Assembly (NCBI GenBank): GCA_965178125.1
Contig: OZ237741.1
Coordinates: 1,116,001-1,180,000, forward strand
Direction: 5' to 3'
From: Bilabrum cf. latius
Taxonomy: Eukaryota
DNA length: 64,000 nt
Under the pieces are notes generated by a model. The model was given only the letters and a program-made list of their open reading frames with translations, made no database searches and had not been told where the DNA came from. Positions 1-31,273 of the stretch are shown here, in pieces; the stretch's first letter is position 1, and every line of letters begins with the position of its first letter. A program made the translations under genes and the position numbers.

Positions 1-3000
1 GATGAGGCAGCTGGATGGTAACCGGCCAGCTAGTAAAACCGCCGGATGCTGCCCCATCGCCGGCGCTGGGGCGGGTCCGAAGCTTGGAATGAAGCGCAAG
101 CGATCGACGCGCGGCATCCCGAGGCACGGCCAGGGCACCGTCCTGGCCAATTACGCCCGCGAGTCCGAGCGCCAGCAGGTCAGTCGCATTCATTTGCGTC
201 GAAAACTCGTGCAGCTGGGCAGTTGCAAGAGCGTCGCTGCCATCAGAGAGGCCAGTAGCCGCAAAGAGACCAATTTTGGTTGGCGATGCGGTCGGAGGGC
301 CGAGGGTGTAGCACGGAGCACTCCATGGTCCCGCGGGCCCGGCACCCACCTCATTGGATAGGCGGGCGCGCACAGCGACGAGGAGGTCGGAAGGGATCCC
401 AGTGATACCGGCCGTTGTTGTGCTCCTGTCCGATACCGAGGCAGCGGTGGCATCAGCGGGTGGAAGCTCGACGTGGTGAGGATTCGGGAGGGCAGAGGGC
501 AGCTCGGGGCCGGTGTGCCCGATCGGTACCTTGCAGGTCCCCATGGGCTCCTCTCCAAGCACTCCCTGAGGCACGCGCCCCTTTCCAAAGAGCGATGGTG
601 GGGCGGCCTGCCACTCCAGCAGAACGTGCGTGGCCGCGCCGGGCAGCACGGACTAGAACGACTCCCTGGCAGCAGCAGGGTGCGGGTGAACTTCGCCACT
701 CTTTGATGCTTCGAGCCTAGCCCGCAATGCACTCGAGGAAGAAGACAGAAGGTCTGGCGCCCTGGATGGAGCAGCCGTGGGCCGCCCCAGCGTAGCCACG
801 CAATCGCTGCATGGCGTTTTGGGTCCCTCCCCGGCGGCGTTGACGGTGGCCACAGCAAACTCGTACTTCGTCTCAGGGCGGAGATCACCCACGACTGCTT
901 GATTTTCAGCGCCTTGTGACACCCCTTCGCCGTGATTGACCCCAGTGTGCATGGGGCCACTCCACTCGGGCTCTTTGCCCAATCCAGCACCGTCCCGGCC
1001 GGCTGCAGCAGCTGCACTGTTGCCTCCATCTTCGCTCGGCTTCACGGGATTGTCCCGCGCCGACTCGCCAGTTGCCCTTACACCATCGATTGCCGGCCTC
1101 CAGTAGAGCATGTACCCAGTGGGTGCGTCGTCATCATCCCCGACCTAGGCAACCCCCCAGTTGACGGTGATGCTGCTGCTGCTGCGGCTGGCGGCAACCG
1201 GGCTAGACGCCGGTGGTAGAGTCGGGGGTCCGAGCGTACGGATGCTCTCGCTCCAAGGGCCCGGAGGTCCCCGCCCGACCGTGCTTATTTCAGACAGTCT
1301 GACCTGAATGTCAGTGCCCGAAGGGAGGTGCTCTAGTCGGCCTGCCAGCGCCTGCGTGATTCCAGCAGCGGCTTGAACGCACGTATCCAAGGAAATGTCA
1401 AGTGTCCCACCCCTGCGAAACCCACCTGGCGTGCCGCCGCCATCTCCGTCCTCTCTTTCCGCTGCTTTCCATTCAAGCTGAAACGCAACGGCCGGCGATT
1501 CGATGGCGGAGGGCTTCCTCGCTGGCCACCCAACCACGAGGGCACAGCGCTCTCGATGCACCGAGACAGGCCGACCGCCCGGGTGCAGGGGCGGACCAAG
1601 CGTGCGGAAAACAGTGCTCCATTCGCCCGGCACGCCCCTGCCTGCCCCCGACTCGCCCAAAACACGCACAATGTACGCACGGCCGGGGGTCAGCCCCGCC
1701 AGCTTGGTCGCAACGGCGCTCGAGGACACCGTCACCGCTCCGCACGGGGGATCGGGGTCCTCCGTGCTGACTCCAGACCCCACCTCGGGGCGGTCTCCCC
1801 GGGCCACAAAGGCCGCCATGGCAGTCTCGGCAGCCAGGAGTCGGTCGGCTGGCACGGCATCCCCGTCTTGGATTCCTGCTGCAGCAGCATCACTAGCACC
1901 AGCACCAGCACCAGCACCAGCACGAGCGACAGGGGAAGACCCTCGATCGTCCATGCCTGCACCAGACGCGGGCGCCTGGCCTCCTTCAGACTATGACAAG
2001 GAGCCTTTGCCTTCTGATGCTGGGCTCAGGGGCGGCAGTGGTCCATCCACACGAGCCCATTCAACCCTCACCGACCCCAGCGGGCAGTCGTCCTCGGCCA
2101 GCTCCGGCTCCGCCCACCGGACCGAGATCGCCCGCGCGGCTCGCGCCCGCAGCCGCGGCGCTGCGGGCTCCACACTAGGAGGTCCCAGCGTCCTAAGCAC
2201 AGCCGAAGCAGGTCCCTCCGGGGAGGGCCCCAGGGCAGAGTAGGCCGCGACAGAGGCGACCCACCGTGTCCTCGGAGGCAGCCCCGAGAACGTGCACCTG
2301 GTGGTCAACCTCGGCGTGCGGAGCTGCAGGGCGCCAATCTCGGCGCGCGAATCGCCGAAGCTGGCCCCTTCGCGCACCGCAAACGCCGGGCTGCCCCCGC
2401 CTGCGTCTGCGTCTGCACCGGAGCTGGGGCTGGGCGGGCTGGGCGAGCGACCGCCGGCTGGGCTGCCTGACCTCGCACCTTGAGGAGTCTCAGAGTGTCC
2501 CTCTCCCCACTTACCCCCCTCCGTGCTGGAGCCTCCTGCCCCCTCCTATCCCTGGGCCTGCCGTGTCCGCCTGGGTCGCAGCGTCACAATGTAGCCCCCG
2601 ACGGGTGCTTCGCCCCCCTTCTCCTCAGCGCTCTTCCACCTCACAGTCAGCTCACCGACGGCATCGCCCACTCCGCGCGGCAGCAGCTTCAGCTCGGAGC
2701 CGCTGTCAGAAGCCGAGTCACCGCCCTTGAGACCCGCCTGCGTCCAAGACACGAGCTCGACGGAGGGACCAGGCGTGGAGAGCGGGGCCAGCGTGGCAGC
2801 CGAGGACGCGACAGGGCACCACGGCCCGGGCCCTGCGTCGCTCTTGGCCCGGATCTCGAAGGTGTGACGAGTGCCTGCCTTGAGACTGCTGACCCTTGCC
2901 TTGGACGCGAGCCAGCCGCCAGGGATGTCTCCCACCGTCACCTTGACAGCTGGGCCCGTGCCAGAGCCTGCAGCTGCAGCGCCGGACGGCGGAGACGACC

Positions 3001-4405
3001 CTGCTCCCGCCCCGGCGGTTGCTGATGATCCGCGCCCCTCGAATTCCTTGATCCGGAGCTGGAATCCAGTCACGGGTGCCTGGTCCTGGATGGGCTGGAG
3101 GGAGGGCAGGGGGGGCCACCGCAGCAGCACGAAGTCGGTGCCTCGCTCGGCGATCACGGGAGGTGCCAGTGCAAACGACGGTGGGGCGAGCGTGGTGAAC
3201 GGGCCGAAGCACCTGCTCGGCTTGCCGAATCCCAGGGCGTTCTTCTCTATGACTCGGATCGCGTAGGACCTGCCTGGCAGGAGTCCAGAGAGTGCGATCC
3301 TTCGCTCGCCCGAAGGCATCGACAGCTCGAAGATCCGATCGTCCGATGCCTCATCGATCGGAGCACCACCACCGCCCGCATCACCGCTGCCCCCAGTGCG
3401 CTCTTCTCCTTGTTCCGCAGCGGGCACCTGCACGTCGTTCTCATCGGAGGCCCCAGCCCCCGCCCCCGCCCCCGCCCTGGCCCTGTACGTTGGCGGCAGG
3501 GACACGAGCCACATCTAGGCCGTGAGCTTGCCGCGCCGCTTGGCGCCCTTCGTGCCACCGGTAGCACCTGTCCCAGAGGAGGAGACCAATGAGGGGTCTG
3601 CTCCCGCTCTGGAGGCGGCTCGGGCGGCAAGGTCGTCCTAGTCGGGCGCGTGGGACATGTCTGCGGGCAGCTGCACCGTGGCGAGCGCCGCAGTTGCTGT
3701 CACACGCCCGGCCCCCGCTGTCACTGTGCCGCGCGATTTTGATCGTTGCGCTTGCATGCATCGGCGGACAGCTGCTGTTGGCTCGCCTCCATCGGCGGGC
3801 ACCATTTCGACGACTTGAAGTGCGTGCGCGATTGGACGGTCCATGCGCCTCCGGGCGTGGCCGCTGGTAGCGACACTGGCATCATCCCCGGCGCGCCATT
3901 GCAACACTAAAGATTTCGATGTTCGAGTCGCTAAATCGACGGATGCTGGCGCTGGTGGCACCGTTCGTGGTACCAAGTTACCTCGCAAGGCTGCAGCCAT
4001 GCCATCGATCGCTGCGTGGGTTAGGCAGTTGCTCAGCAATGCAATCTATGATTTGCGTGTTCGATTTGATCTCTTATGGGCATAAACTAGCTGCTTACCA
4101 TCTGCCCATTCTGAGGCTAGCACGGCCGAGCTGAAGGCTATCGAGCGCATGTAACCTTGCGGCTCCGTAGCAATTCGCAGGGTGGACTTATCACCGCCAG
4201 AGATGCGAACATTAGTTGTGTCCCGAACCGATAAACTAGATATGATCCGCCCCGAGCCATCGCGAAGGATCAAGAACGGTGATTTACATTGCAGAAGACC
4301 TGAGACGAAGCCACGCCCCGCCCCGGCTCCAACTTGAGGGTCAGTGGGCTCCATTTGAACAGGAGCAGGCTGCACCTGCGGGTTGAAAATGTCATTGGCG
4401 CTCAT
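1..4405 (-). CDS. Large fibronectin type III repeat protein (host, runs off window start)
   Basis: ORFs 4046-4426, 3638-4039, 2546-3514, 1991-2377, 1145-1954 and 653-1111 share one frame and are separated only by TAG. Repeated FN3 motifs (LxPGxxYxxRV, GxGPxS, TLGPP). Probable start ATG at 4405. Confidence 0.8.
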
Positions 4406-4612
4406 TGGATCAGTGCAGCAATGCAAGAGAACGTTTTGTGCGCAAGCAAGACAGTAGGAACCGGAGCCATTTCATTGCAAGGGGCCTTGCTGCCTACACA
4501 ACAGCAATATTACCCAATCGTGCGAAGGCTTCTTCGTCGCATTGCTTCTGACAAGTCTATTTGTGCCGCTCACGTTGCGCCGTACCGCGCTTTTTGCACT
4601 AGCTTGCCTGCA

Positions 4613-5347
4613 ATGGCTGCGCATGATGGGAGTGGTTCGTTTACATACAAGTGGCCTCGACCAGCAGCCACAGCAGATTGTATTGTGCTCAGAGATACCG
4701 GGAAAATTGACGTTCTTTTGATTAAGCGAGGTGGTACGCCTTATAAGGGCTGCTGGGCGTTTCCGGGCGGCTTTGTAGATGCAATGGAGGATTTGGAATT
4801 GGCTGCAAAGCGAGAATTGGAGGAAGAAACTTGCCTGAAAGGCGTACCCATGCTTGAAATTGGTATGTTTGGAATGCCCGGGAGGGACCCGCGGGGGCAC
4901 ACGATAACTGCAGCCTACCTCGCTGCCGCAGGGGCAGAGCTTGCCAAGACCGTCAAGGCTGCAGACGACGCAGCAGAGGCTGACTGGGTGGGTCTCGCGG
5001 GGGACTCGGAGCTGCCACAGCTCGCATTTGATCATGCCAACATCCTGTGTTCGGCTCTACGGAAAGCGTCCCGCGGCATCCGCATGGGTGATAGCGATAT
5101 CCTGGACGTCCTGGCTGGCGGTGGCATCCCAGCTGCAGACCTGGCCCCTGAAGGCCGTGTGCAGCGCGAGCTGGAGCAGGGCTGGCTCAGGGCGGCCAGA
5201 ATGTGGGCGGAGCAAGTGAAGGAGCGCGCCGACTCGAAGAGCGGGTACCTGGAGAGGGCGGGCAAGCAGCTGGCGGAGGCGGAGCGGCACTGCGCCGGTC
5301 CGGCACCCTCGGCTGCTGCTGGTGGCCCGGCAGGCTCATCTTCATGA
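4613..5347 (+). CDS. Nudix hydrolase (ADP-ribose pyrophosphatase-like)
   Basis: Nudix box WAFPGGFVDAMEDLELAAKRELEEET, plus GRDPRGH and LAFDH; TGA stop. Confidence 0.9.
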   Translation: MAAHDGSGSFTYKWPRPAATADCIVLRDTGKIDVLLIKRGGTPYKGCWAFPGGFVDAMEDLELAAKRELEEETCLKGVPMLEIGMFGMPGRDPRGHTITAAYLAAAGAELAKTVKAADDAAEADWVGLAGDSELPQLAFDHANILCSALRKASRGIRMGDSDILDVLAGGGIPAADLAPEGRVQRELEQGWLRAARMWAEQVKERADSKSGYLERAGKQLAEAERHCAGPAPSAAAGGPAGSSS

Positions 5348-5569
5348 ATATTGCAGTAGTGAACAATACGAAGCACTGTGTGCAGCTTCTCTCGGGCCCA
5401 GATTGTGGCGGTTCGCAAGCGGATCCAGGACGAGATTGTGGTTGATGATGTGTCTTGCGCTAGGGGCCATGTTAGTGTTAGTCTGGAAGGCATGGCGATT
5501 GCTGTTTGAAGTGCACCATGCTGGAAAATACGAAAGCAGTTGCACCATTGGGGGGCCAATAATCAATGT

Positions 5570-8500
5570 TCAGCCCTGTGTGTCGCCGTACACGAGGCTA
5601 GAGGCGCAAGACGCCGGCCGGCTGCCTGCCGCATCGTCGGATCCCTTAGACCCAGGCCCCGAAGGGGGCAACGCATCCACCGGCTGCTGTGCAGACGTCA
5701 CCAGGAAGCTGGTGGTCCCACCCGACCGAGTCTTGAGCGCAGCCTGGGCTGCCATGCCAGAGCCCGACCGCTGCCTCGTCTGGCGCTGCGCCTGCTTGGT
5801 TGCCTCGTCCGGCATCCGCGCCAACATGTCGTCGATCTGGCCGTCACTGGCGAGCAGAACCACGTGGCCGTCGTCATCGTCATCGTCATCGTCTTTGTCA
5901 TACTCGGCGCGGCGAACACTCGATAGTACTCCCTGCCGGTTCGCATCGCCAACTACACCGCCTCGCTCGGCTGCTGTAGCGGCACCTCCCGTGCTTGACC
6001 CGCCTCCTGCCGCAGCAGCACTCGCCTCGAGATCGAGGCCCTCGCCGCTCTCGCCAGACCTCACCTCCCGCGCCTCCTTGTGTGCCTCGACCTCCGAGGG
6101 CAAGAGGTCCAAATGCTGCAGCGGGTAGTAGCCCCCAGGCCCCCGGTACCGGTCTTCGTCGCCCCTCCGGTCGATGACCACCTCCGTCATTCGCTGCTTG
6201 AGCGGCTGCGCCTCCTCGTCCTCCAGGTTCGCCTGTTTCTCTCTCTCCCAGAACTCCATGTTTGCGTCCAGCTGGGCCAGCTCCTCGTTGCTGCCCAGGA
6301 ACTCGGCGAACACAGCGTACGAGGGCCTCACCACGAACTGGATAAAGCCCAGCTGGGAGTGAGGGAGGTTGTGGTCGCCGCGGTCGCACAGAGGTGAGAT
6401 GGGCAAGCCCAGCCGCCGCTCGCAGTCGCCCTGCCTGTAGAACTCCTCCGTGATGAGGTCGGTCCACTTGAGGTGGGAGTGCAGCGGCCTCGCCGGGTGT
6501 GACACGTCCGAGCACTTGAGCACCATGTTGAGCACGAGCTGCCTGTCCTCCTCCGAGGTCTTCCCCAGGCTGACCGTGGTCGCGAGCTTGGACTTGAAGG
6601 TGTTGACGAGGTGGGCCCCCGTCGACAGGTCTGTCACCTTGATGGCCTGGATGGCGACGTACCTGACACGGCGCCTCTCCTCGTCCTCGAGGCTGACCAT
6701 CATGTTGTAGCGAGGGTGGTGCAGCAGCTGAAAACCCTCCGATGTGTGGTAGTGCTCCAGCACCGATTCATCGTTGTACCTGAGAGCCAGATCGTGGCTC
6801 GTGCTGACCAGGTATGAGTTGCTGCAGCCGGGGTGCCTGAAATCGTGGATCATTGCAGCGAATAGGAGGGCGAAGCTGTCGAGGCTGTTGGCAATCGACT
6901 TGATCTTGCTCAAAGACAGGAAATGAGCGACGCCTTGTGTAACTGCGACATGAAGATAGGGGAGGGGGGGGTGCGCTGGACCAGAGTAGAGCGGTGGCTA
7001 TGGATTGTTGCAAGCAAGCGCAAGCACGGCGGTGCAGTCGTTGTCGCGAAGACCACAAGCACGGACTTGGCCTGCGCATCTTACCGTCGGCTGCGTGCGT
7101 TGAGCAGTGGTAGGGATTCCTGCGCTGTGGATCGAAGCAGTAGTAGTACTCCATGGTGTTGAGGAAGGCCGACCGCTGCGGCTCGGGGAGACTGTACTGC
7201 TGCACGCAGCCGAACTCCTCTAGGAGTCGGTTGCCCAGCAGCGCCAGCGGCCGCCTGCCGCTGGCTCCCTCTAACGCGAAGATGTCGAAGTTCCATCGTA
7301 GCGGCTCCTTGAGGGCTTTGATCACGCTCGCAGTCTGCGGTGACAAGTCCAGGTAGGTGCACGGCAACAAGTCTGACTGGCTGTGCTCGATCCGAGCGCT
7401 CTCAACTTGCTGCGATCCGCTCTCGAATGCGGTAGCCACGCTGCCCTCGCCCGAAGGTGGGAACTTCACAGAGCCGGCAGCGAGGAGCCCCCTCATGTCC
7501 ATCGCCGCAGAACTCCCCGACCCGCGACCAGCCTGCGAGGAAGACGTCTTTGAGCTGCCCTCCGGACTGCTAGATCGACGTTTGGAAGACGAGCTCGAGT
7601 CACCAACAGCGTTGGTACCAGCCGCACCCGGCCCATTGGCACCAGCTGGGCTCTGAGTCTGCGGCGAGGCCTGCATTTGGAGCTCCTCAAACACGTCTGC
7701 AGCGCTAATGGCCCGCACGAGCCCGATCCCATACATGGATGTCGGGCCTTCCGGATTCAACAGCAGATTGACAGAGGTTTTAGCATGATGGACGGGCAGC
7801 GCAGTGCCAGTCGTGCCTTGCTGATGACCCGCCCACTTGTTCGGCGGCTTTTCGCTGCCATGCTCTCCACTGCCAGGCGCAGCATCGTCCTCACTGGATG
7901 CCAGCGAGGCGGCGCTGTCTCGATGCGGAACGCTCTCCTCGGCGCTCTCCTACACGAGCGGCATCTGCGCCACGAAGCTGCGCATGTGAGGCATGGATGC
8001 GTGCCTGGCGTGCAGGGTGTAGCGGCGTGGCAGCGGAAGCTTGTCCCCGCTGTCATGACCACCAGCTGCATCTGCTTCCGTGCCGTGCTCGGGCGCTTCA
8101 TCCGCGTCCACCACCGTGGTGCTCCCATCCTGGCCCACCACTGCCATCCCGGGGATGTGAAACGACATGGCGGGCGCCTTGTTGAGCACCGACAGGGAGT
8201 GCGCGCGGAAGAGCTGCTGCTGGGACATGCGGGTCGTGACCATGCGCGCCTCCGAGCCCATGGGCCTGAGCCGCCGGTGTGACGAGTGCCTGGAGGCCGA
8301 CGACATGGACGAGTGCTGCGTGGCGGAGGCCATGCTGCCCGAGGCCGCGGTGGAGGCGGCACGGAGCATCCGCATGCGGCGGCCGGACGTGGCCGTGCTG
8401 TTGTTGGTGCTTGCGTGGCTCCTGACGTCGTTCAGGCTAGAGCGGGACAGGGACGACCCGGCGCCAGTGTTCCCCGTCGCGGTCCTGGAAGGATTGCCCA

Positions 8501-9911
8501 GGCGCAGTCGCCGCCTGGAGCTGTGCCGCTTCCTGCCCCTGACCTGCGCCTTGCCCGAGGTGGGCGCTCCTGATGTGAGCTGGGTCGCCAGCCACTTGCG
8601 CGTGTTCTCGTCGTCCAGGGCTGCCGGCCCGGTACCTCGCTTGGATGAATCGGTGGACTTGGAGGCCTGCCGAGGACCCATGCCGGCACCGGTGGCTGCT
8701 CCAAGCTGTCCTGGTATGGTGCTGGTGGACCTTTCAGGGTCGTCAGGAGACGTATGACGACGCGACTTGCTTCCCACGGAACCGATCGACCCTGATCGAG
8801 ACGATGCTTGGGGCACGAGGCTGCTGTGCTGCCGATTGCCTCGCGCGGCGATCGAGGGCCGGCGGCGGGCGGCGGGCCCTTCCAAAACGGGATCAATGCC
8901 CGACGCCTGTCCCTGCTGCGCAGAAGGTTTGCTGGAGGCCACTGGTGAAGCGAGCAGCTTGTCGTAGTCGACCTTGTACAGGTCCGACGTGTTGTACAGA
9001 ATGTCCAGACAGCGGTCCACTCGCTGCCTCGTGGTCGAATCGGCCGCGACGTGCTTAAGCGGTCGGATGAGACGAATGAGCCGCTGTGCCGGAGTAGACG
9101 TGGGATCGTCCCCCTGCGGGTCCTCTGCATCTGGGAGTGAGGCCAGGCTTAGGCTTCGCATCCCTGGAACGCCTGCAGCGCTCCTTTCGCGAAGTCGCGA
9201 ACCTGCAGCCCTCCCGAGCGAGGCTACGGACCCGCTTCTACTCTATGTTGACAATGCAACGGAATCATTGTCCCGAGAACCTGGCTGCTTGCGTCGTGAG
9301 GCAGACTCGAACGGCGCCGGCAGCACTGGAACCACGCGCCTCGCCGAGTGTTCCGATCCCCCTCTGGAGCCCATCTTTGAGACATACCAAACATAAATAA
9401 TCAAAATAGATGCAGAGGCTCCATGGCCGCAGCCAGCAGCGATGAAATCGGATCTCTGCGCGCGGGAGCCACCCTCTCCAACCTCGAGTCCGAGCACGCA
9501 GCCACACACCACCGCGAGGCCTGGGGCACAGTCGTACCACTAAACGCCGTGTTCAATTCTGCTCGAAAACAAAGAAAGGACATAAGGCGCGGTGCTTAGC
9601 GCGCCGAGAGCAGTTGGTGCGTACAATTCGCCTTGGTTGGATGCTGTCAGCGACAGGCTCGCTGTGAAAGCCAACACTGCAGCCACTGCAGTACGTGCTA
9701 CGACATCCAGAGCGGGTTCTACCAATGTATTCGCGAGGAAGTCTATTTTCAGGAACTTTTGAACTTCTACAGCAATATTCAGAGCCAAACACGCAGCGGC
9801 TACTGCTGCCAGGGCCACTGCGAACGGCTGCTCCTCGGCAGACCATGCAGCAATTAACTCAACCGCTATCCAAACGAGCGGAATCGCTCCAAAAGGTCGT
9901 CTGGCAAGCAT
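5570..9911 (-). CDS. Class I cyclic nucleotide phosphodiesterase with N-terminal transmembrane region
   Basis: Motifs NPYHCSTHAAD, HDFRHPG, LEHYH, KCSDVSHP, EEFYRQGD, SQLGFI. One frame from 9911 to ~7085 through TAGs at 9540, 9243 and 7950, then a GTAAG intron near 7085-6950. Confidence 0.85.
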
Positions 9912-10144
9912 CGTAATTTACTAGATATATGATGGCCGATCCAAGGGTGCTGATCACGCAAAGTGGGGGGAACTGATCATGAAGAGGCGAGCGAGCATTT
10001 TTGCAGCCGGCAGTGACTGCGGCGCCGCGCCGCCGGCGGCGGAGAATCGTCATCACACTTCAAGTCGCGCAGTTTGCCGTGCCGCTCAGCATTGAAGTAC
10101 TGCCAGATGAAAAACCAGCGTAATTCTGAGGTATTTCTGCGGCA

Positions 10145-10675
10145 ATGATGGGGCGCGGCCGAGCGATGCAGCTGATCGGTTGGCGTGGGGCTGTCAAGAG
10201 ATGGCACCCCGAATCTGCGCCGGGAGATCAGTTTAGTGCTTGCGGGGCTTGCGGGCGCGCTCTACAAGTGTCTGAATCTACCATTCCCAATGCTGGCCAT
10301 GGGCTCTTTGCAGGAGAACGTATTGGGGCCAACGAGAGCGTCTGCTTGTACCGTGGTGATCTTTTGTCAACTAGAGAAGCCTTTCGATTGAAGGAGCAGC
10401 AGCGATCGTACTTGATGCGACTTGGGGGTGGAGTGTGGGTGGATTCAGCGCATTAGGAGCACATTTTGGCTCGGTACATCAACGACGCCCGGAAACCAGG
10501 GCGGTACAATGTGTATTTCGACAAGAGACCCAGCTTGGGCTTGGCGATTGTGAAAGCGTTGCGTGACATTGAACACGGGGAAGAGATATTTGCATCGTAT
10601 GGCAAGTGGTACTGGTCCAAACGGTCAGATGGGGCGACTGCACCGAGCCGAAACGCCCTCGAGGTGCCGCAGTGA
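10145..10675 (+). CDS. SET-domain protein (host)
   Basis: STIPNAGHGLFA...ARYINDA...ALRDIEHGEEIFASYG; the two ORFs join across one TAG (10454-10456). Confidence 0.8.
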
Positions 10676-11280
10676 GGCCAGCTGTAGGCTATCGGTAGGG
10701 ACGATCGAGTCCCCCCGGCGGGTAGCAGTGCGTTCGAGCGTCTCCCTGAACGCCTCATAGCCTTGGTGTCTCGGACATGGGTAGGCACATAACACTCTCC
10801 GTGGCCCTGGCCTTACGGCCGTACGTGGCAGACTCCGGGCAGGCTGGGACCGGCAAGCGACCGGTGCTAGTCTGTGCAAAACAGTGGAACTGCCGTGGAG
10901 TGGCTTTGAGTGGCTTTGCGCGAGCATGGCACATTGTAGTCCGGAGCCTGTGCACAACCGTATAGACTAACTGCATCTTCACAAGGTGCAGTTTTGGGGT
11001 GGGCACAGGGGGCCAAGGCTGCGCGGTGGCTCTCCGCCGGCGCGTTGATGCGAGGGTGGTATGCTGGCAGCTGGTGAACGACACCAGCAGACGGATCGCC
11101 CGAGCATCATTCAGATCAATCGCTGCGTTTTATAACTCACCGTTGGTTCTAGATCCGAGAGGACACAGATCTTAGTGTCGGACTCAATGCCCGGTTATAT
11201 CTACACGCTACTAATAAATCTGCATTTTGCTTTCGTGACGAGCGCACAAACGACTAGATTTCAACTGCTGATACCTCGCC

Positions 11281-12374
11281 ATGCCTAAGCGGAAGAGGTC
11301 TGAAACTGCAGGTATGTTGAAATATTGATGTTCGTATGATGCTAGCCATGTTATTATCTCCGTAATAACTTTGTAATTATCATGCTTGCTCGCATCCAGG
11401 TGCCCATGCATACATCCTTTCTCGTCCCTGCAGCAGAGCCGAAAGGCAGAAAGGCGCGAAAGGCCCCTACTGAGATTCCCTAGTCTGATGTTGAGGCACC
11501 CAGTGGCGACAAGGCGAAGGCCCCCGCTCTCACGAACGAAGAGAGACTTGCGAGACGGTAAGGGCCCTCAGATCATTTTGCTGCTCCAGTCCGAGTCTCA
11601 AAGCTTTTTACGTCCCCTCATATGGACCAGCGCCGCCCTTGTACTTGCAGTCGAGTTTTGAACCGAAAGAATGCTAGAAAAAGCCGGGAGAGGAAGCGCG
11701 AGCACAAATCGTCCCTGCAGGACAGAATAACGTAGTTGCAGCAGGAGCGCCAGGCGCTTGCCAGCCGGTTTGAAGCGCTAGGACTCCCCAGCCCGGAAGT
11801 GGTCCTCAGGGAAGGTGTCTTGGGGCTGTCTCTTGAGCAGGTCCTGCAGCAGGCGCCCGCGGACCCGGTGCAGCAGGGCGCCCTGCAAGCGGTCATCGCC
11901 GAGACACAAGCGGGCCCGCAGCGGTCCAGAGCATCCTCTGTACCGAAGCTGCCCACCGGTGCCGGTGCGGGGCACTCTAGTGCGGGGATCGGCGCGGGAT
12001 CGGTTCCGGCCGCAGCTACTGCTGCCAGCGCGGCGGCGACGGCGGCGGCTGCCGCCGCCGCGGCCAAGGCCGGGGCGGGCGCTGTGGGCCGTCGCAGCAG
12101 CGGGCCGGGAGGCGGCCGGCGGGCAGGCACCGCGGATGATGCGGCTGGCGCTGAGGCCCTGCACGCCCTCGCACGGGGGGCGGATGGGAAGATCACCGAG
12201 AGCACCCCTATGACGGCTGCGGCGGCGGCTGCGGCCGCCGCCGCCGCCGCCGTGAGCAGCGCAGGGGCGGCGAGCCGTCGCCGCGGGGGATCCAGCTCGC
12301 TTACTGCCCCTGCCGCCAGCTTCGTGCCCGGGGCGGCGGCTTCCTCCTCCTCGTCGTCCTCGACCACCTCGTGA
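11281..12374 (+). CDS. bZIP transcription factor-like protein (2 introns)
   Basis: Basic region RVLNRKNARKSRERKR followed by heptad leucines. GT-AG introns at about 11312-11432 and 11558-11650; in-frame TAGs. Confidence 0.65.
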
Positions 12375-12582
12375 CTCGATCTGGCGTGACGAGTGCACTA
12401 CTGCCAGTGCCACGCTGCATGCGGTAGGCGGTAGGCTTGTTGGTTCGGCTGTGGCGTTTGGGGGCTCGTGCTTGCTTGCCGGTTTTGAGTGACGACGGTG
12501 AAATTTGCGTACTTGATGCATGAATCGAATGCCCTTCGTCACCACCCACATGACATGCTTTGCGACCTTTACAGCCAATCTA

Positions 12583-14183
12583 TCACATGCCCCCTGCCCT
12601 CTGTCGACGCATCTGGGGGCGGGTGGTGCTCCTTCGGAGCGACCCCTGAGGCCTGCTCATCGGGTCATTATTCGACGGGGCGGGCGCGGACGTGCCCCAG
12701 CCGCTGTCCCCCCCGCTAGTTCCCCAGCCACCGCCGCTGCCAGACGATGCGCCCCAATCGCTGCCTCCCCCGCTAGTTCCCCAACCGCTGCCGCTGCTGC
12801 TGCTGCTGCTGCCTCCCCCGCTGGTGCCCCAGCCACTGTCCCCTGAGCCCCACCCGCCGCCCGTGCCGCCCGTGGCGCCCGCGCCCGCGCCTGTCTGCCC
12901 TGCCTTCTCTCGGGCCGCCACCACCGCTCGGCGAACGTTTTCTAGCTCCGAATCCGTCGCGCCGAAGGCTCCCTCTCCGTGGTCGAGCCGGGACTGCTGC
13001 TCCAGCGCCCTGAGCTGTGTGGCCGCCTCGTACTTCCGGTCTGCCTCGATGAAGGGGTCCCGCCTGTGGAGCGGCACCCCGCCCGAGGAACCGGAGGAGA
13101 GCGAGCCCGCGGCGTCGACCCCCTGCAGCCGTTGTTCCCTGGCGAGGTCCTCCTGCTCCCTCTCCCTCCACATCCGCGTGAACCTTTCCTTCACCTCGTC
13201 CAGCCTCCCACGGAACGCCTGGATGGGGCCCCCCGCCATGCGCCGGATGGCGGAGTGCTCGTTCTGCAGCGCCTGCTTGACGGCCACGGAGGGGTTCCGC
13301 CAGTGCGCAGCGCCACCAGCCCCCGTCTTGCTGGTGAGAGACACGGCTCCCCCCAGCGCCGCCTGCAACTCCTCCATCTGCTCGTCCAGAGCCGCGACTC
13401 TCCGCTTCGTGGCCTGGTAGAACGTGGACACGGCCGGGTGCGGGCGCGAGACGACCGCCGTCGGGGGTGCCCCGGAGGCGTACGCCGCCGCGTCTCCGAG
13501 CTGCTGCCTAATTTTAGTTATGGTCGCGTCCGTGTGTCGCGAGGACCAGTCTGCCTGTTTCTCGAGGGATTCCACCCGCTTCTTGAGCTGCCGCAGACGG
13601 CCGGACCACAGGTCGTGGCCGGCTCGCAGGTGGTCGCAGCTAAGCACCACCGCCCTAGCATTCTTCTATAGAGCAGCACCCTGGTCATGCGCAGCGGTCA
13701 AAAATCTGTCCTGAAGGTGAACAGCCCGGCTGCGAACAATACCAGCCAGAGCAAGCAAAGGGAATGCGTGAATAGGGGCGCTTCGGCAATTGCCATTCAA
13801 AGGTCTCAGCCTTCCTCACTGCAGTCGCCTCAGTCTTCGCTTGTCCATATCGGAATAATCCTTCATGGGGAGTTCGCCTGTCTATCTCCTGCGATGTAGT
13901 GGCGGCCATGGGAAACGACTTGAGGCAGTATGTGGTTGGGAGCCGCGAGCAGCGACGTTCCTTGCAGGCCAGCTTACATCCTAGCCCGTTGCGACTTTTC
14001 TCGTTGGGATATAGTTGTTGTCTGGCCATCACCAGCAGCAGGCGCTGCTGCGGGGCCTGGCGCAGGAGCCGAGTTCCAATCACCCCAAGAGTCCGACTTC
14101 GTGCCACCACCAGAGCTCGATCCGCTGCCTGGCGCCGGAGCTGACGCTGGCGTGCTTGATCCCCAGTCACCCCATTCGGACAT
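12583..14183 (-). CDS. Coiled-coil protein with WG repeats, possibly Nup58/Nup49-like nucleoporin (spliced)
   Basis: N- and C-terminal SGWG/DWG repeats flank a coiled coil. Exon boundaries are approximate. Confidence 0.4.
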
Positions 14184-14308
14184 GCTATTTAACCCGTTCG
14201 ATTGTATGCCCAGCAGGCCGATCGAACATCTGCTCCAGCAGCCCTATCAGCACGCTACAAATCCCACCAGTCGGTTTCAGAAGAAACGGCTATACTGCAA
14301 TCGCTAGA

Positions 14309-16274
14309 ATGGATGATGAGATGTTTGAACGAGTTTCCAAGCATTTGACTGTAAGATCTAGGCGTCAGGCCTCTTGGTACGGTCTATTTCCCTTCTTGTG
14401 TTGCCGTTCGGGCAATGAAACGCAACGGGTCTGTGTGTCCTTTCCCGGCTTCGCAGGCGTCTGAAGTCCCAGAAATGTTGGAAGAGAGCATCCAAATGTT
14501 TCGACCAAAGCGAATTTTAGGCGCTTGCATCGAAAAGTTAGGCAGCGACGAAGCCGTACTGGCCCCATACCTGGCAGTTGCAGTGGCCTCGATGAACGCT
14601 GAGGCTACAGAGCTGCTAGCCACCGCGGGAGCTGGATTGCACCTGAGTGGGACTAGCCAGCAATCTCCGCCAACTATTTTGCATGTAGCTTGCAGCATGG
14701 CGGGCGCAGCGCTCCAACGCCCAGATGTCGTGGATGGGTCGGTGGCTGGCCGCCCCGCCGGAAGCGAGCAGTCCGACCCACCGGCGGTTCTGTCCGACCC
14801 TCGCATCTCCGCGCGCGTGCTCGCTCTATTGGTGGACAACGCTTCGGACGAGCAGCTGGCGGGTGCCGCTGCCGCGAAAGATCCCTTCGGCCGGTCCCCC
14901 TTGCACTGCCTCTGCGGCTCGATCGCAGCCGCCGTGGGGAGGCGGGGCCCAGGCAGAGGCAGCGGCCCCAGGTCCCCAGCCCAGGGCAGCAACGAGGAGG
15001 AGGAGGCTGCCGCGGGTGCCCTCCGAGAATCTCTTGTCATCGCAGCAGAGACGCTCGGCCGTGCTGCCCCCGCTGCGGGGGCCTCCAGGGACGTGGCCAG
15101 CCGGACCCCCCGGGGAATCCTCAGGGGAGCAGCCTCCACCTCTTCGCTCTCGTCCGCCTCTGCCGACAGGAAGCTCATCGATCGGCTGCTGGCGGTGCTT
15201 GACGACGCTGTTCCGGCCGACGAGCAGCCAGCGGGCGCCGCGCGATCCGGTTCCGCTGCGGAAGGCAGGAACCCCATGGAGGAGCGCAAGGAGGAGGGGG
15301 GGGGCGGACAGGGGCTTGCTGCCGGGGACAAAGGCGGGCTGCTGCACCCGTGGACGCGCGCCCGGCTAGCGGCGCGGGCCCTACACGAGAAAACTGCCGC
15401 CATGGTGTAGGAGGGGGCGGGTGGGCAATCAGGGGAACAAGGTGCAGACCTGCTGTCCACCCCCGCAGGCGTGTTCCGCGTTCTTGCCGAGTCTGCGGGG
15501 TCGGATGCCGGTGCCTCTGCGCTCAGCGCAAGCGATCTAGCGCGGGGTTGTCGCGAGATAGGCATTGCAGAGGATGACGACATCGCCTTCCTCGTCGTGT
15601 CGGTGTGCCTGGGGCTGGCTCCGAGCCTCGGTGCGGACGGGGAGGAGCCTCCGGACGACGTGTGCGAGCGGGCGGCGATCGAGGCGGAGGAAGGAGGCAG
15701 GTGCAAGGAACTATCCAGGGAACAGTTCGAAGAGTTCGCGCGCGGCGCCGCGCCAGAAGTTCCGCAGGGTCACGAACAGGACGAGAGCCCGGTCAAGCAG
15801 CAGGACGATGAGGTTGTAGCTGGTGCATCGCATGGCGGTGCATCGGATGAGCTGCGCTCGTCTGGGGCTGGAGGGGAAGCTGAGCCCGAGAAGGAGGAGC
15901 AGTCGGCTTAGGACGACGGGGCGGCCGTGGGCATCGCAGGGCTGGGGTTTGGGGACGGCGGTGCGGCCGAGGACGACGAGGACGACGAGACTGCGACCAC
16001 TGCCACTGAGAGGACGGGAGCCAGCGGAGCCGACGGGCGGGGCAGCAGAGGGGGCGGCTCTGGCAGGAGACGGCGGTCGTCCACGACGGCGGGGGACGAG
16101 ATGGTGAGGCAGGTGCTGCAGGGGGCCGCGGCGGAGGCCTCGGGTGGTTCTGGGCCCAGTTTGACGGCAGCTGCCAAGGCGGTGTCCCCGTCGGTGGGGT
16201 CGGGGCGGGTTGGGGCGATTCAATTTCATCCGTCAGGTGCCGGCGAGGGCGAGAGAGGGGCTGGTCCGGGGTGA
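14309..16274 (+). CDS. Hypothetical protein (possible ankyrin-like and EF-hand-like segments)
   Basis: Short first exon with GTAAG intron. ORFs 14415-15410, 15471-15911 and 15927-16274 are in one frame, joined by TAG, ending in TGA. Confidence 0.6.
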
Positions 16275-16532
16275 TCGATTGCTCGGCGTGAAACTACAGA
16301 CGGTTCGTATTGTTGCTTCGTTTGTGCGTGTGTGCGGCTCATCCTCTCACTTTCTCGGGTGATAGGATGGGGGTCGTGGCTTTGGTAGCCTCGCGTCGGC
16401 ATTAAGATCTGCCTCGGTATCGGCGGCTGCTGCAACTGCAAAAGTGCACGCAACGACGGCTTTCGGGGACCAGCGACTACCGGTTGACACACACAGTTGA
16501 CACGAGGCCGTATCGATACATTGCCAGGAGGG

Positions 16533-18015
16533 ATGTCAGATTATGACGGGGAGACCTGGATCGAATGGTTTTGTGGGCAGGTCGGCAACGAGTACCTTTG
16601 CGAAGTCGATTCTGCATTTATCGGTAAGAAGTGTTTTTGTCTAACGGGGAGAATTACGATAAATCAAGTTGCAATATAGTGACTGGATCATGATAAGACT
16701 TTCTTATACATGTCGGTCAGTCGGTGCGATTGGGAATGGACGGATGCGCACTTCACAGTCAGTACACGCCCGATCACTCTGCCGCAGAAGATGCCTTCAA
16801 TCTGTACGGACTGAGGTCAATGGTGCCTCACTTCAGGGAGTGTCTGGATATGATATTAGATTGTGCCTCTGGATCTGGTGAGATTGAAGCGGTGGCAGCC
16901 AGACTGCCCGGTTCAGCTAGGGCGACGTATTTGAGATTCCCTCAATAGGTTCCCGCGTTTGCGCAGAGAGAGAAGAATGGACCGGAACACTGTACGAGCA
17001 TTGCAGAGACTTGTATGGGTTGGTTTAGGCGAGATTTATATTGACGGCTCGAGGCATGTCGCTCATGCTGGCAAAATTCGAGGAGCACGAATTCGGCCGC
17101 TGCCCCAACGTGCCGTGCGAAGGCTTCCCGTTGCTACCAGTTGGCCTGTCGAACGAGCTGGGCGTTGCTCCAGTGAAGGTGTTTTGCCCCAAGTGCCAGA
17201 ACATGTACCATTGCACGGGCGAGAGCCCCTCTAGGCTGGACGGTGCCTATTTCGGGACCACCTTCCCCCACTTGCTCCTTCTCGCCAAGCCACAGCTCAG
17301 GCCCCAGTTCGGGCCGGAGCCCTACATCCCCCGGATATACGGATTCAGGGTGCTCGGCTGCAGGGGCAGCCTCTCCTCCGACATTTTGCCGGAGATAGAG
17401 CGCCGGGAAGCGCTGCTGGAGGAGGAGGCGCAGCGGCAGCGGGCCGAGCTGCACGCCATGCACGGAGCCGATGTGGGGACCGATGTGGGGACCGGGGCGG
17501 GGGCTGCGGCAGGTGCAGTAGTTGCTGCCAGCAGTGGCGCGGCCGTGCAATAGGGTGCTGGTGCCTCGGGGGACAAGGCGAAGGGGTCGAGCGCGCGGCA
17601 GGCCGGGGCTGGGGCTGGGGCCGGTGTGGTGGTGGCGAGCACGAGCATAGATGGCAGCGATTTGGCCTGGTCTGGCGTGGGCGGGGCCAAGTGGGGCATC
17701 GCCGGCGGGGGGGCTTCTGTTCCGGGGGAGCTGCCCGGCGCGGTGCCGCCCTCAGTGACCGCGGTGGCGCCTGGTGTGACGAGTGCGCCTACCGCGTCGT
17801 CATCTTCCGCCGCGGCAGCAGGGGCAGGTGGGAAGCAGCAAAAGGGCCAGCAGGACGGCCCCGGCAAGCGCCGGTCCAAAGGCGGGTCCGGACGCTCGGT
17901 TGGGAGCGGGGGGGGTGTGAACGGGTCTCGTTCCGGAGCCGCGGCGAGCGATGGGGGAGGGCGGTCATCGTCCACGGGGAGGGCTTCGAAGAGAAGGCGA
18001 GCGGACGGGCATTGA
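16533..18015 (+). CDS. CKB: Casein kinase II regulatory (beta) subunit
   Basis: WIEWFC..GNEYLCEVD..FI/EDAFNLYGL, FGRCPNVPC, VKVFCPKC, LDGAYFGTTFPHL, YIPRIYGF; two introns; TAG read-through to TGA at 18015. Confidence 0.9.
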
Positions 18016-18171
18016 ATGATGTATTCTGATGTGGAGATCACGGCGTTCACTGTAATTCTGCTCTGTCCACGGGCCCGGGTTGTTGGCCAAGTGTGATGAA
18101 GACGTGGCGAAGCTCCATGGGGTGCGCTGCAGATACATCCAAGCAATCCATTAAGGCCCAGGTATTGCGCA

Positions 18172-19923
18172 ATGTCTAGCACCAAGCCGGATGCGACCGT
18201 ATCCGAAGGTTTGTACGATCCTAGTCCTCGACTGGATGGTTTCGGAGGCGCCCATGTGTGGGGCGAATTTACGCCTCTAGCGATTTAGAAGAAAGCCGTA
18301 AACCTGGGACAAGGATTTCCAGACTGGCCAGCAGAACCATTTGTCAAAAAAGCATTAGCGGATGCTGTGATGCACGATGAGAACCAGTATACCAGGTCCG
18401 CGGGGCACCCTGCCCTTGTCAAGGCACTTGCCAACAGGTACTCGAGGGTTTTAGGACGGACCATCGACGCGAATACCGAGGTGAGATGCGCTGAAGATTT
18501 GCAAACACGTTGAACACATCAATATTCCTGACAGGCACTGTCGTACCGAGTTTTACGACATTTATCCTGGGCGCAGGTAACAGTCAACGTAGGTGCAACT
18601 GAAGCGATCTATGCCCTGATGCAGGGGCTTGTCGGCGATGGGGACGAGGTGCTGCTCCTTGAACCTGCCTTTGATATCTATGCAAAGTAGGCCCAGCTCG
18701 CTGGGGGCAAGGTCGTGTTTTGCCCGCTGCACGTCCACCACAAGAGCAAGGGCAGGAAGGAGGCTGTCAGGCGAGGCCTCCGCTTGCCCTCGGCCGGCGA
18801 GACAAAGCACGTGGGAGCGCCTCCGTAGAAAAAGGCTCGGGTGGGAACGGAAGCAGATGCTTCGCCGGGCGCCTCAACAGCCCCAAGCAACGGCAGCTCG
18901 TCGGCGGCTTCATCCTCGTCCTCGTCCTCGTCCTCGTCCAGCTCCGCTGCTTCCGGCGGCGCCGCGGCTGGTCCCGCACCCGCATCCGGCTCTGACACGT
19001 CATCCACCGGGTGCGAGTGGGAGTGGAAGCTGGATCCCCTGGAGCTGGAGAGCAAGCTGTCGGCCCGCACCAGGGTGCTCGTCCTGAATGCACCCCACAA
19101 CCCTACCGGCAAGGTCTTCAGCAAGGAGGAGCTGCGGGCGGTTGCAACCGTCCTGGCCAAGTACCCGAGAGTGGTGGTCATCTCGGACGAGGTGTACGAG
19201 CACCTCGTCTACGACGGCAGGGAACATACTCACCCGGCGGCTCTCCCAGAGCTGTGGCCCCGCACCGTCACCGTGTCCTCCTCGGGCAAGACCTTTTCCA
19301 TCACCGGCTGGAAGATCGGCTGGTGCGTGGGCCCCGCGGCTCTCATCAAGCACGTCATGCAGCTCAACGCGTGGGTGCAGTTCTCCGTGCCCACCCCCAC
19401 CCAGGCCGCGGTTGCAACCATCCTAGAACAGGCCGACAAGCCGTACAAGGGGGCCCCCAGCTACTACGCCTGGATCCGAGGCGAGTACCTGAGGAAGAGA
19501 GGCATCCTGGTTGAGGGGCTGAGGGCAGCCGGCCTGGACCCCATCGTGCCGGAGGGCGGTTTCTTCGTCATGACTGCCACGGACAGCCTCGAGGTGCCCC
19601 CTGCCTGGCTCAGGGAGTCCACAGAGGCGTGCCCGGTGATGACCAGGGACTGGGCCCTCGCCAGGCACCTGCTGCTGGAGGGGGGCGTGGCCTGCATCCC
19701 ACCCTCTGCGTTCCACGAGCGAGCCACCAAGCCCGCAGCCCGCAACCTGATCCGGTTTGCCTTCTGCAAGTCGGACGACTCGCTGCAGGAGGCGTGCAGG
19801 CGACTCAAGGCCGCGTGCAGCGCACTGCGGCGCATGGCGGGCGCGAGCGCGGGGGGCATGGGCTAGGAGGAGCCGGCCGTTGGGGACGGGGAGGGGGCAG
19901 CGAGCGCCGCCATGGAGACGTAA
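18172..19923 (+). CDS. Class I/II aminotransferase (kynurenine/glutamine transaminase-like)
   Basis: NLGQGFPD, NAPHNPTGKVF, ISDEVYEHL, SSGKTFSITGWKIGW, IRFAFCK. Intron about 18481-18576. Reads through TAG at 19864 to TAA at 19921-19923. Confidence 0.9.
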
Positions 19924-19924
19924 A

Positions 19925-19969
19925 TTGCAGTGCAATGCAGTGCAATGCAGTGCAGTGCAGTGCAGTGCA
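19925..19969. repeat. (TGCAG/TGCAA)n microsatellite
   Basis: About nine tandem pentamers visible directly. Confidence 0.8.
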
Positions 19970-20577
19970 TGGCGTCACACATTGCGGGGTGGGTTGCTGG
20001 GGCTCCCGGGTGCACCTTTTTTTCCAGGGGAAAGAAATCTTTCTATTCAGTGCAGTGCAGGCCAGCTGTATCTAGTTCACAATTAGCCAAATCAACCTCA
20101 CTGCCAGTGAGCCACACGCGGCTCACCGCCTCTCTCGCATTCGGGGAACCAGAGTCCAGGTTCTGAGACGGCGCTACTAGGCGGCCTAGTAGGTAGTGCT
20201 GCTTCCAAAACGAATCGTAGCAAACTTTCGTACCGCCACCTCTTGTTCGGTCAGCCAGTTGCGTTCGCATACTGGCTTGTTGGGCTCGGCAGCCTGTGTG
20301 TCTGGCTGCACGGCATGCGATTGGAACGGCAACCCATTTGAACCGATTGCAAAAGAACCGCCGTACCCCTTGATGCGCATGGCATGCCGCTTAGTACTGG
20401 GCGGGTATGGCGCCAGCGAACCGCACCGTCACTCCCGCGCGAGCGTCCGAGATCTCACGGTAGTTTCTGCCCCGCTGCCTCAGATGGCATCGTGCCTTTT
20501 GAGATCACGCCTCTTGAGCCTACCCTCTGCCTCTGCGACCCAGTCGAGGCGTGATGCCACGTCTGCAATATTCAGGC

Positions 20578-21396
20578 TCAAGAGACGATACAGCACGGTC
20601 CGGATTCCCCCGCGCCACCCTGCCCCGGGTCCTGACCCGACTCGAGCGCGGCTCGCAGCTTGGCCGCCGATGCCTCGTCCTGCTCGCGCATGCGCCGCTG
20701 GTCCTCCGTTTCGGACCCCCTGGCATCTGCGCCGTCATCCTTGGCGGCCACGCTTGCGACAATGACCTTGTCATGGAACTCCAGCTCTGCTTCGGACAGC
20801 TTGATGCCGATGGACCTGCCGGCCACGTCGTACACGCTCCGCATCACTTGGTCGCCGTTTCGGGCAGACACAAAGAAGCCGCCGTCGAGGTTCTCGCGGG
20901 ATATGAATCGTTCGTGCTGCTTATCATCGACCCTTCTCGCGTGCAAGAGATCAATTTTGTTTCCCAGCAAATGAATGTGCGGGTTTCCAGGCGTGGCAGC
21001 GGCAACATCGTAGTCGGACTTCGCGCCTGCTCTAGGGTCAGCACTCCCATCGTCTCTCGAGCAGGCCTGCCGCACTCGCTCGAGCCAATCATCTAAATCC
21101 TAAAACGACTTCGGGTCTGTGACGTCGTAGCAGAGTAGCACGACTTGAGCGCCGTGCAAGTACGCGTCCAGCATCTTGGAGCTGATGCTCTGGCCTCCGA
21201 TATCATGAACTTGCAGAGTGACAGTCTCATCCCCACGAATTTTTAATCTCTTTTCGTAAAAGTCGATTCCAACCGTCTGCTTGTAAACCTAGGAAAACCC
21301 GTCGTCACGAAACCTGGCGCAGATACTCGTTTTGCCGACGCTACCGTTTCCGACAAGGACCAGCTTGCACGTGTGCTCTCCGGCTTTGGCAGCCAT
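20578..21396 (-). CDS. RAB28: Rab family GTPase, Rab28-like
   Basis: GNGSVGKTS, YKQTVGIDF, DIGGQ, GNKIDL, VSA, C-terminal CIVS; two in-frame TAGs (FS*VYKQT, SF*DLDDW). Confidence 0.85.
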
Positions 21397-27572: not shown

Positions 27573-27875
27573 CTCTCGCAGTCCATATGAAACCCGTAGT
27601 ATACTACGGGTTTCATATGGACTGCGAGAGTAGAGTATAGGGGATTTTACTTTTGTTAAAAGTAATTACTTTCCATGAATTGTACAAGAGTCGAAATTTC
27701 TGAATGGGTTATTCTGTACGTGCAGAGATGGATCGGGAGAGAGTGTTGCTGGGCGCGAACAGATTCTCCTGCGAGTTGCTGTGGATTCCGCAATTCCTTA
27801 ATGGATATAATTTACTTCTCTAGGGGTTTCAAACGGGCGAGGGGCGGTCGCGGAGCGCACGTGCGCAGCGCGTGG
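27573..27875 (+). repeat. Left terminal inverted repeat, starting with a perfect 58-bp palindrome (27573-27630)
   Basis: CTCTCGCAGTCCATATGAAACCCGTAGTA|TACTACGGGTTTCATATGGACTGCGAGAG; the remainder is an imperfect reverse complement of 55361-55594. Confidence 0.95.
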
Positions 27876-30617: not shown

Positions 30618-30718
30618 AATAATTCCATTTTTTACCTTTAATCCCGTACTAAATTGATACGGATTAAATGCAAAATAATATCTGGCTAGATACTCACACA
30701 GAGAAAATCCTGTTTTCA

Positions 30719-30880: not shown

Positions 30881-30927
30881 ATACCCTACTATAGACTACC
30901 ATCCTTAAATCGTTTCTAAAAAATCGA

Positions 30928-31218: not shown

Positions 31219-31273
31219 CTTACTATATAATATCAAAAAATGTTTAAATCATTTTCCGAAATTCGATGATGAT

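Follow-up and report, generated by a model that had tools for sequence, protein, structure and literature searches.

A change in the meaning of UAG usually includes UAA: as stated in PMC11687900, both codons almost always change together, and few nuclear lineages uncouple them. UAG alone is given as a Gln codon for the fornicate Iotanema spirale, for Protocruzia tuzeti, and for two phyllopharyngean ciliate lineages (PMC11687900; PMC5304391), and the first of these sources also gives UAG as Leu in an uncultured rhizarian and as Ser in Scotinosphaera. The stretch of DNA analyzed here, 64,000 nt in length and called “the window” in the following, contained nuclear genes of a protist interrupted by TAG, and also a block with the same feature that was read as a virophage-like element integrated in the genome. 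These data give good confidence that the host nuclear code uses UAG as a sense codon, most likely for Gln, that UGA (mostly) and UAA terminate translation, and that the virophage shares this code. As in the UAG-only codes of Iotanema, Protocruzia, and the phyllopharyngeans, UAG would thus specify Gln while UAA remains a stop codon. In contrast to Iotanema and the ciliates, the host had a GC content of about 62%, GT-AG introns of 89 to 164 nt, a Rab28 protein grouping with those of stramenopiles, and an endogenous virophage sharing the host code. The codon table inferred here is that of NCBI translation table 15 (TAG for Gln, TAA and TGA as stops), which is a formal table and not a lineage, and translation of TAG as Gln restored all frames. 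Although codes with UAG for Gln have been described before, this is probably a lineage in which the type had not been recorded.

Endogenous Polinton-like elements of Streblomastix strix are described as following the variant code of their host, and this was interpreted as indicating that both had long been associated (PMC10120064). As far as this description goes, both cases are alike in that an integrated, capsid-bearing DNA element follows the stop codon reassignment of its host, but TAA and TAG are both Gln codons in this oxymonad, whereas only TAG is concerned here and the element is virophage-like. The endogenous mavirus-like virophages (EMALEs) of Cafeteria are low-GC elements, bounded by terminal inverted repeats (TIRs) and with genes for an rve integrase and virophage capsid proteins, in a GC-rich genome of the heterotrophic flagellate type. 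The element in the window is similar in its size of about 28 kb, its low GC content, its TIRs, its rve integrase, and its capsid; Cafeteria is not known to recode TAG. Code-15 phages use a code that differs from that of their hosts and has a presumed regulatory role in the phage, whereas host and virus share the code here. In crAss-like and other phages with this recoding, TAG is used for Gln in their own genes (PMC9523058). Full-text searches in a limited collection of papers revealed no report of a change in the nuclear code of a stramenopile, of a reassignment of UAG alone in a virophage host, or of a virophage with recoded TAG; the alternative codes in an Antarctic virus paper dealing with virophages and such codes concerned Crassvirales only, and genetic codes appeared in a stramenopile review only in a mitochondrial reference.

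TAG codons in host genes and transcripts

Two GC-rich flanks (1-28000 and 56000-64000, about 62% GC) surround a low-GC block (34 to 43% GC). Open reading frames (ORFs) were translated with TAG as X, and 59 chosen ORFs of the 198 with at least 120 amino acids (aa) were put to Pfam. The flank genes were of eukaryotic types, including FN3-repeat, NUDIX, phosphodiesterase (PDE), SET, bZIP, casein kinase 2 (CK2) beta, aminotransferase, and Rab28-like genes, and the right flank carried glycosyl-hydrolase-like genes and that of an exosome RNase PH subunit. At least 10 host genes were broken by TAG only, never by TAA or TGA. The following genes were traced:

2..4471, minus strand: FN3-repeat protein gene, running off the left window end (Pfam fn3, E=1.4e-30)
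4304..5347, plus strand: NUDIX hydrolase gene without in-frame TAG; ends with TGA
5570..9917, minus strand: cyclic-nucleotide phosphodiesterase (class I) gene (Pfam PDEase_I, E=6.6e-68); ends with TGA
10130..10675, plus strand: SET-domain gene; TAG at 10454-10456 in the domain; ends with TGA
11444..12374, plus strand: bZIP gene, intron 11557-11649; leucine zipper containing TAG 11733-11735; ends with TGA
16966..18015, plus strand: last exon of the casein kinase 2 beta gene; ends with TGA
18172..19923, plus strand: kynurenine/glutamine-type (class I/II) aminotransferase gene, exons about 18172-18480 and about 18575-19920; ends with TAA
20578..21393, minus strand: Rab28-like GTPase gene; TAG at 21289-21291 and 21100-21102; TGA directly after CCIVS
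61184..62341, plus strand: exosome RNase PH (Rrp41-like) gene; TAG at 61229, 61247, 61271, and 61415; ends with TGA

A first-pass annotation, with a stated range of positions 1 to 21396, had described the FN3 gene as repeatedly broken in one frame and always by TAG. This is correct: frame 2-4471(-) was open for 1,490 codons, with 7 TAG (4046, 3638, 3515, 2546, 1991, 1145, and 653) and no TAA or TGA, and the TAG at 1145-1147 was inside a stretch matched by Pfam fn3. Over the six frames of 1-28000, about 1.45% of the codons are TAA or TGA, and the chance of an open run of this length is about 4e-10 by arithmetic. The curated host coding segments together contained 32 TAG but neither TAA nor TGA in 7,407 codons, so that 297 codons were presumed to be Gln, 32 of them TAG. 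Alignments to Pfam models or PDB chains enclosed at least 13 of the host TAGs, and the reading frame was the same on either side of them: 4 in RNase PH, 2 each in Rab28 and the aminotransferase, and 1 each in CK2 beta, SET, bZIP, fn3, and a glycosyl-hydrolase piece, so that the Pfam families with internal TAG included fn3, SET, bZIP, CK_II_beta, Aminotran_1_2, Ras, and RNase_PH. In host and virophage genes together, 115 TAG stood against no TAA or TGA in about 15,000 codons, and the domains had no internal frameshifts. There is hardly any doubt that TAG is a sense codon, and the earlier proposal of TAG as sense with TAA and TGA as stops was supported in the host genes and, beyond its original range, in the integrated virophage.

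Internal TAGs had also been reported for the PDE, SET, CK2 beta, aminotransferase, Rab28, and exosome genes. They were present in all of them, with some corrections as to their location. The PDE gene comprises a catalytic exon in frame 5573-7321(-) and a long upstream exon in frame 6771-9917, and its 3 TAG (9540, 9243, and 7950) were in the latter and not in the catalytic part. The PDEase_I domain (residues 125-347 of ORF 5573-7321(-)) contained no TAG; those ahead of the domain, three TAGs within residues 1-108 of this ORF, are probably intronic. The exon junction would lie near 7000, as placed by the start of the domain, and no contig joint was present there. The CK2 beta TAGs at 17026-17028 (within the domain) and 17551-17553 (in the tail) are coding, whereas the first TAG of this ORF sits in an intron, 16877-16965. 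In the aminotransferase gene, the TAGs were at 18286-18288, 18688-18690, 18826-18828, and 19864-19866. The exosome gene indeed possessed four in-frame TAGs, although its location is at 61 to 62 kb and not within the first 21,396 nt.

Ten public sequencing runs cover part of 16600-21700, and the contigs of four were compared with the window over 4200-21700: X1, the run with the deepest cover, and X5, X6, and X7, which are RNA by guess, with X5 being flagged “probably DNA.” Six intervals of 89 to 164 nt with canonical GT..AG ends (CT..AC for minus-strand genes) were bridged by joints in contigs of X5, X6, and X7:

joint 11556>11650, intron 11557-11649 (bZIP gene; joint present in X5, X6, and X7)
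joint 13729>13820, intron 13730-13819
joint 13887>13977, intron 13888-13976
joint 14350>14457, intron 14351-14456
joint 16622>16787, intron 16623-16786 (upstream in CK2 beta)
joint 16876>16966, intron 16877-16965 (upstream in CK2 beta)

None of these six joints was found in any listed contig of X1, which indicates that these contigs of the other three runs derive from spliced RNA, although the library types are guesses. Spliced contigs spanned the bZIP TAG (11733) with no other letter, and contigs of X6 and X7 spanned the CK2 beta TAG (17026) unchanged. An X5 contig (20024-21446) spanned both Rab28 TAGs (21100 and 21289) with no other letter, another one (18918-19877) spanned the aminotransferase TAG at 19864 unchanged, and the TAGs of ORFs 12586-13815(-) (13666) and 14457-16271(+) (15408 and 15909) were likewise covered without any other letter. 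At every TAG covered, the four runs matched the window, and no difference was listed. The spliced contigs retained TAG, and editing or splicing-out of this codon, which would have contradicted its use as a sense codon, is therefore excluded for the genes covered.

The virophage-like element and the amino acid at TAG

The low-GC block between the flanks was read as an integrated virophage-like element, with a virophage-type capsid gene, an rve integrase gene, and TIRs:

27573..55652: integrated low-GC virophage-like element, about 28 kb, about 38% GC, TIR-bounded
31625..34174, plus strand: virophage primase-helicase (DUF5906) gene; 10 in-frame TAG
43791..44897, plus strand: virophage packaging-ATPase-like gene with Walker A motif; 9 TAG, 8 of them in the stretch searched
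51115..52926, minus strand: virophage major capsid protein gene (Pfam MCP_V20_C); 6 in-frame TAG

The TIR arms (27568-27789 and 55436-55657) are 222 nt long and 91% complementary; no target site duplication was evident by eye at their ends. The capsid ORF 51118-52926(-) matched MCP_V20_C, the Sputnik V20-type capsid, with E=1.4e-10 and 41.3 bits at a cut-off of 27, and ORF 40163-41374(-) matched rve with E=1.9e-16. The 24 ORFs of the element comprised 7,556 codons with 83 in-frame TAG, equal to 83 of 420 presumed Gln codons or about a fifth. The gain in open frames was specific to TAG. When read with the standard code, the element contained 2 ORFs of at least 300 aa; this number was 11 if TAG was taken as a sense codon, 2 if TAA was, and 3 if TGA was. 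The cover by ORFs of at least 250 aa was 13%, 61%, 15%, and 22%, respectively. In shuffled sequence with TAG as sense, ORFs of at least 150 aa covered 4%. TAA is the commonest of the three stop triplets in the 38%-GC element.

Evidence for the amino acid came from the primase-helicase (31625-34171) and its close relatives. A word-indexed search with this protein gave one match, the database protein P0154, which was 76% identical and had Gln at 7 of the 10 TAG sites. A metagenome scan yielded two contigs, L001, which was 86 to 87% identical over residues 4-377 of the primase-helicase, and L002, which was nearly identical to P0154. The Gln residues of P0154 were rejected as proof of Gln since they are possibly circular: L002 has in-frame TAG at several of the sites where P0154 shows Gln, and P0154 was therefore apparently translated with TAG as Gln.

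The window was compared instead with the DNA of L002 itself, over 845 aligned codons at 76% identity. In L002, the 10 TAG sites of the window were CAA or CAG in 6 cases and TAG, AGT (Ser), GAG (Glu), and TTA (Leu) in one case each. Conversely, the 8 TAG sites of L002 were CAA or CAG in 6 cases, TAG in one, and AAG (Lys) in one case in the window. While 26 of the 36 true Gln codons of the window paired with Gln or TAG in L002, this was the case for only 11 of 799 other residues; in a Fisher test, TAG differed from the other residues (p=8.4e-11) and did not differ from the Gln codons (p=1.0). L001 had 3 TAGs in common with the window and one TAG opposite a CAA of the window, and two window TAGs faced Lys and Leu in L001. 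The other ORFs of L002 added nothing beyond the primase-helicase gene. Such a reciprocal exchange of TAG and CAA or CAG between relatives is the signature expected of a Gln codon at the sequence level. The comparison also shows, again from sequence, that the TAG trait belongs to a virophage lineage present in other samples.

Alignments of host genes and of more distant homologues were less informative. At the host side alone, the evidence for Gln is weak: the alignments are compatible with Gln and contain some unfavorable columns. The assignment of TAG to Gln, as originally proposed, was supported by the virophage exchange and not by these host alignments. Residues at the Rab28 TAG sites in PDB chains were Lys/Leu/Pro/Glu/Thr and Glu/Glu/Ala/Asp/Glu, and those aligned with the RNase PH sites were Gln/Glu, Arg/Arg/Gln/Arg, and Glu/Glu/Glu/Ala; the TAG site in exon 1 of the aminotransferase aligned with Asp/Gln/Glu. 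Among 120 database homologues, the two Rab28 columns contained Arg 59, Lys 22, Gln 13, and Pro 12, and Ala 46, Ser 22, Gln 12, and Asp 10, respectively, with Gln as the third most common residue in both (13/120 and 12/120). The statement of the first-pass annotation that the Rab28 sequence SF*DLDDW fits Gln was weak in view of the latter column and of Glu in the closest relative. The virophage ATPase, when searched exhaustively, had 453 homologues at E<=0.001. Its best true relative was 35% identical, and its TAG columns were mostly polar. True Gln sites in the Rab28 and ATPase alignments were recovered as Gln by a Codetta-style likelihood, so that the TAGs of these genes are considered to sit in variable columns; their most common partners were single-base neighbors of TAG, namely AAG, TCG, and GAG.

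Some database predictions for this lineage were inconsistent. P0004, an ATPase piece of 125 aa, was cut at two TAGs, and the Rab28 relative P0166 started at an internal Met downstream of the position of the first TAG in the window. In CK2 beta, TAG 17026-17028 replaces the His of LYGLIHARY; if TAG is Gln, a Gln would be at a normally invariant His.

Gene ends, decoding, and rival readings

The ends of 12 host genes were traced, 11 with TGA and one with TAA, and the virophage ORFs ended with TAA in 16 and TGA in 8 cases. This agrees with the earlier observation that all genes end in TAA or TGA, which is nevertheless partly true by construction, since the ORFs had been delimited by TAA and TGA. 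Three ends coincided with the C termini of homologues, those of Rab28 (CCIVS compared to CCIIA in P0166), RNase PH (LAMVS compared to LTMVT in P0003, the one match of a word-indexed search), and the virophage primase-helicase, and none of these three genes with a homology-defined end stopped at TAG. TAGs close to true ends were read through, at residues 584 and 595 of the 603-codon capsid ORF and 19 codons ahead of the TAA of the aminotransferase gene, which argues against position-dependent termination.

According to the proposed explanation, the window comes from the nuclear genome of a protist that is rich in GC, has introns, and probably belongs to the stramenopiles; the cytoplasmic translation of this protist would read UAG as sense, most likely as Gln. 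This may be achieved in the usual way, by a tRNA-Gln with the anticodon CUA together with an eRF1 blind to UAG. A virophage without a translation apparatus of its own would be decoded by the ribosomes and tRNAs of its host and would have adapted to the host code. Since the element lies among TAG-bearing host genes and uses host translation, a single cytoplasmic code with UAG as Gln is the simplest reading, and we infer via the virophage that the host also decodes TAG as Gln.

Evaluation of this explanation needs to consider a number of observations that weigh against it. The Gln assignment comes from one virophage gene and two related contigs, which, judged from the record names, are possibly from one project. 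All 5 PDB alignments shown for CK2 beta had His opposite the TAG, and the TAG site in exon 2 of the aminotransferase aligned with Met. At the second TAG site of Rab28, the closest relative is P0166 (74% identical) and carries Glu; for RNase PH, the TAG site within the alignment with P0003 (49% identical) is occupied by Asp in this relative. These residues at the two sites covered are not significant, yet offer no support either. In the Codetta-style likelihood with 9 usable TAG columns of Rab28 and ATPase, Lys, Ser, and Asp came first, with Gln 5.5 nats lower. No tRNA with the anticodon CUA was found in the 64-kb window, the sole tRNA being Met(CAT), nor was there an eRF1 gene, with no match to a release factor family among the 59 ORFs put to Pfam. 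The spliced nature of the X5 to X7 contigs depends on guessed library types and on a run, X5, flagged as probable DNA, and occasional termination at TAG is possible with 64 kb examined.

These observations bear on three other readings. TAG may be mostly Gln and additionally a context-dependent terminator, as in the stop/sense codes of some ciliates. The 12 host and 24 virophage ends are a small number, and ORFs delimited by TAA and TGA would hide a terminating TAG; the TAGs near the true ends of the capsid and aminotransferase genes are read through, however, the primase-helicases of the window and of L002 pass late TAGs to reach matching C termini, and none of the three homology-defined gene ends is a TAG; such an ambiguous code is considered improbable. 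Slightly less probable still is a TAG read as sense in the host but as another residue, such as Glu, Lys, or His, or as a mixture resulting from near-cognate decoding. The order of residues in the Codetta-style likelihood, the invariant His of CK2 beta, and the Glu and Asp of the closest host relatives would fit this possibility, as would a virophage paralogue pair with a TAG opposite AAG (37665-37744 and 41431-41510; family D14). On the other hand, the partners of the window TAGs in L002 were CAA or CAG in 6 of 10 cases, never Lys or His, and Glu once, and the virophage must use the same cytoplasmic apparatus as the host genes. Lys, Glu, Ser, and Leu codons are moreover one base away from TAG and expected at variable sites even if TAG is Gln.

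A third reading, that the TAGs are not translated at all and belong to pseudogenes, assembly errors, edited RNAs, or unrecognized introns, is very remote. GC-rich DNA does yield long chance ORFs, and some TAGs are intronic, for instance, the first one of the CK2 beta ORF. It would nevertheless have to account for the 115 TAG without a single TAA or TGA and for domains free of frameshifts, for the agreement of four runs with the window at each covered TAG and the retention of TAG in spliced contigs, and for the TAG positions shared by related virophages in other samples. Among these possibilities, a common host and virophage code with UAG as Gln remains the preferred reading.

Host lineage, consequences, and further features of the element

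The named Rab28 matches were almost all from stramenopiles (ochrophytes and oomycetes), with 45 to 55% identity. In a FastTree phylogeny of 121 Rab28 sequences, the query and P0166 formed a pair with a support of 0.999 inside a clade of 25, next to ochrophytes and oomycetes, with a weak support of 0.22 for this join. Judged from this one short gene, the host probably belongs to a stramenopile lineage that has been sampled poorly.

A tentative and less secure extension, to which we give somewhat less than an even chance, is that this is the first variant nuclear code affiliated with stramenopiles (UAG as Gln only) with a “code-locked” virosphere composed of the endogenous virophage, its free or integrated relatives in environmental metagenomes (L001 and L002), and, by implication, the giant viruses on which they depend, all with TAG for Gln. 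If this is true, in-frame TAG would be a barrier to host switching and a marker tying uncultured virophages to a host lineage. The code common to host and virophage, which is also present in metagenomic relatives, is direct evidence at the sequence level that both have long been associated and could serve to assign uncultured virophages to hosts. As a further UAG-only case outside the ciliates, apparently in a stramenopile, it would bear on the co-evolution of eRF1 and tRNA-Gln. On the practical side, gene calling with the standard code truncates proteins of this organism and its virophage, and pieces truncated at TAG (P0004) are already present in public databases, as is at least one protein apparently translated with TAG as Gln (P0154).

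Further Pfam matches in the element were DNA_methylase (two C5 DNA methylases), a SET domain, a Tet/JBP-FkbM fusion, and a lipase, and two RING-MORN paralogues were also present. Candidates for the penton (52865-53821) and a cysteine protease (53800-54324) were guessed from the gene position, without a Pfam match, and the ATPase-like ORF obtained no family name despite its 453 homologues. Scans of IMG/VR with the capsid, with P0154, and with the C-terminal piece of FN3 found no relatives. The tRNA-Met(CAT) gene is located within the element at 38418-38490(-) (ARAGORN; Rfam 61.5 bits); it is unusual for a virophage to carry a tRNA, and this one is not a UAG suppressor. The primase-helicase gene lies between inverted repeats of about 270 nt (31273-31543 and 34180-34451; pairs I2, I3, and I5) and is directly followed by a 67-residue partial copy of its own C terminus.

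An AT-rich intergenic motif with the core AAATCATTTAAGATTAA occurred shortly ahead of the ATG and upstream of several virophage ORFs, which makes it a promoter candidate, either for the element itself or for its helper virus. Its sites were as follows:

34743-34810
35319-35386
35674-35740
36563-36629
37197-37263
38992-39058

A segment of 178 nt was present twice in the element (35970-36147 and 46654-46831), 98% identical and richer in GC than its surroundings; it had no Rfam match and could be a small nested mobile element. Directly left of the element, a satellite with a period of 204 to 206 nt extended over 23725-26490, with 10 copies of a 300-nt reference and 21 copies of a 58-nt core, and one diverged core copy was found directly to the right (55645-55702), so that a tract of repeats seems to have been the insertion site of the element. 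Direct repeats, perfect or nearly so (21756-21922 = 57224-57390; 21527-21701 = 21922-22096; 56334-56633 and 56653-56952) bracket the region of repeats plus virophage with a spacing of 35.5 kb; they could mark where a larger mobile element ends or could reflect a segmental duplication.

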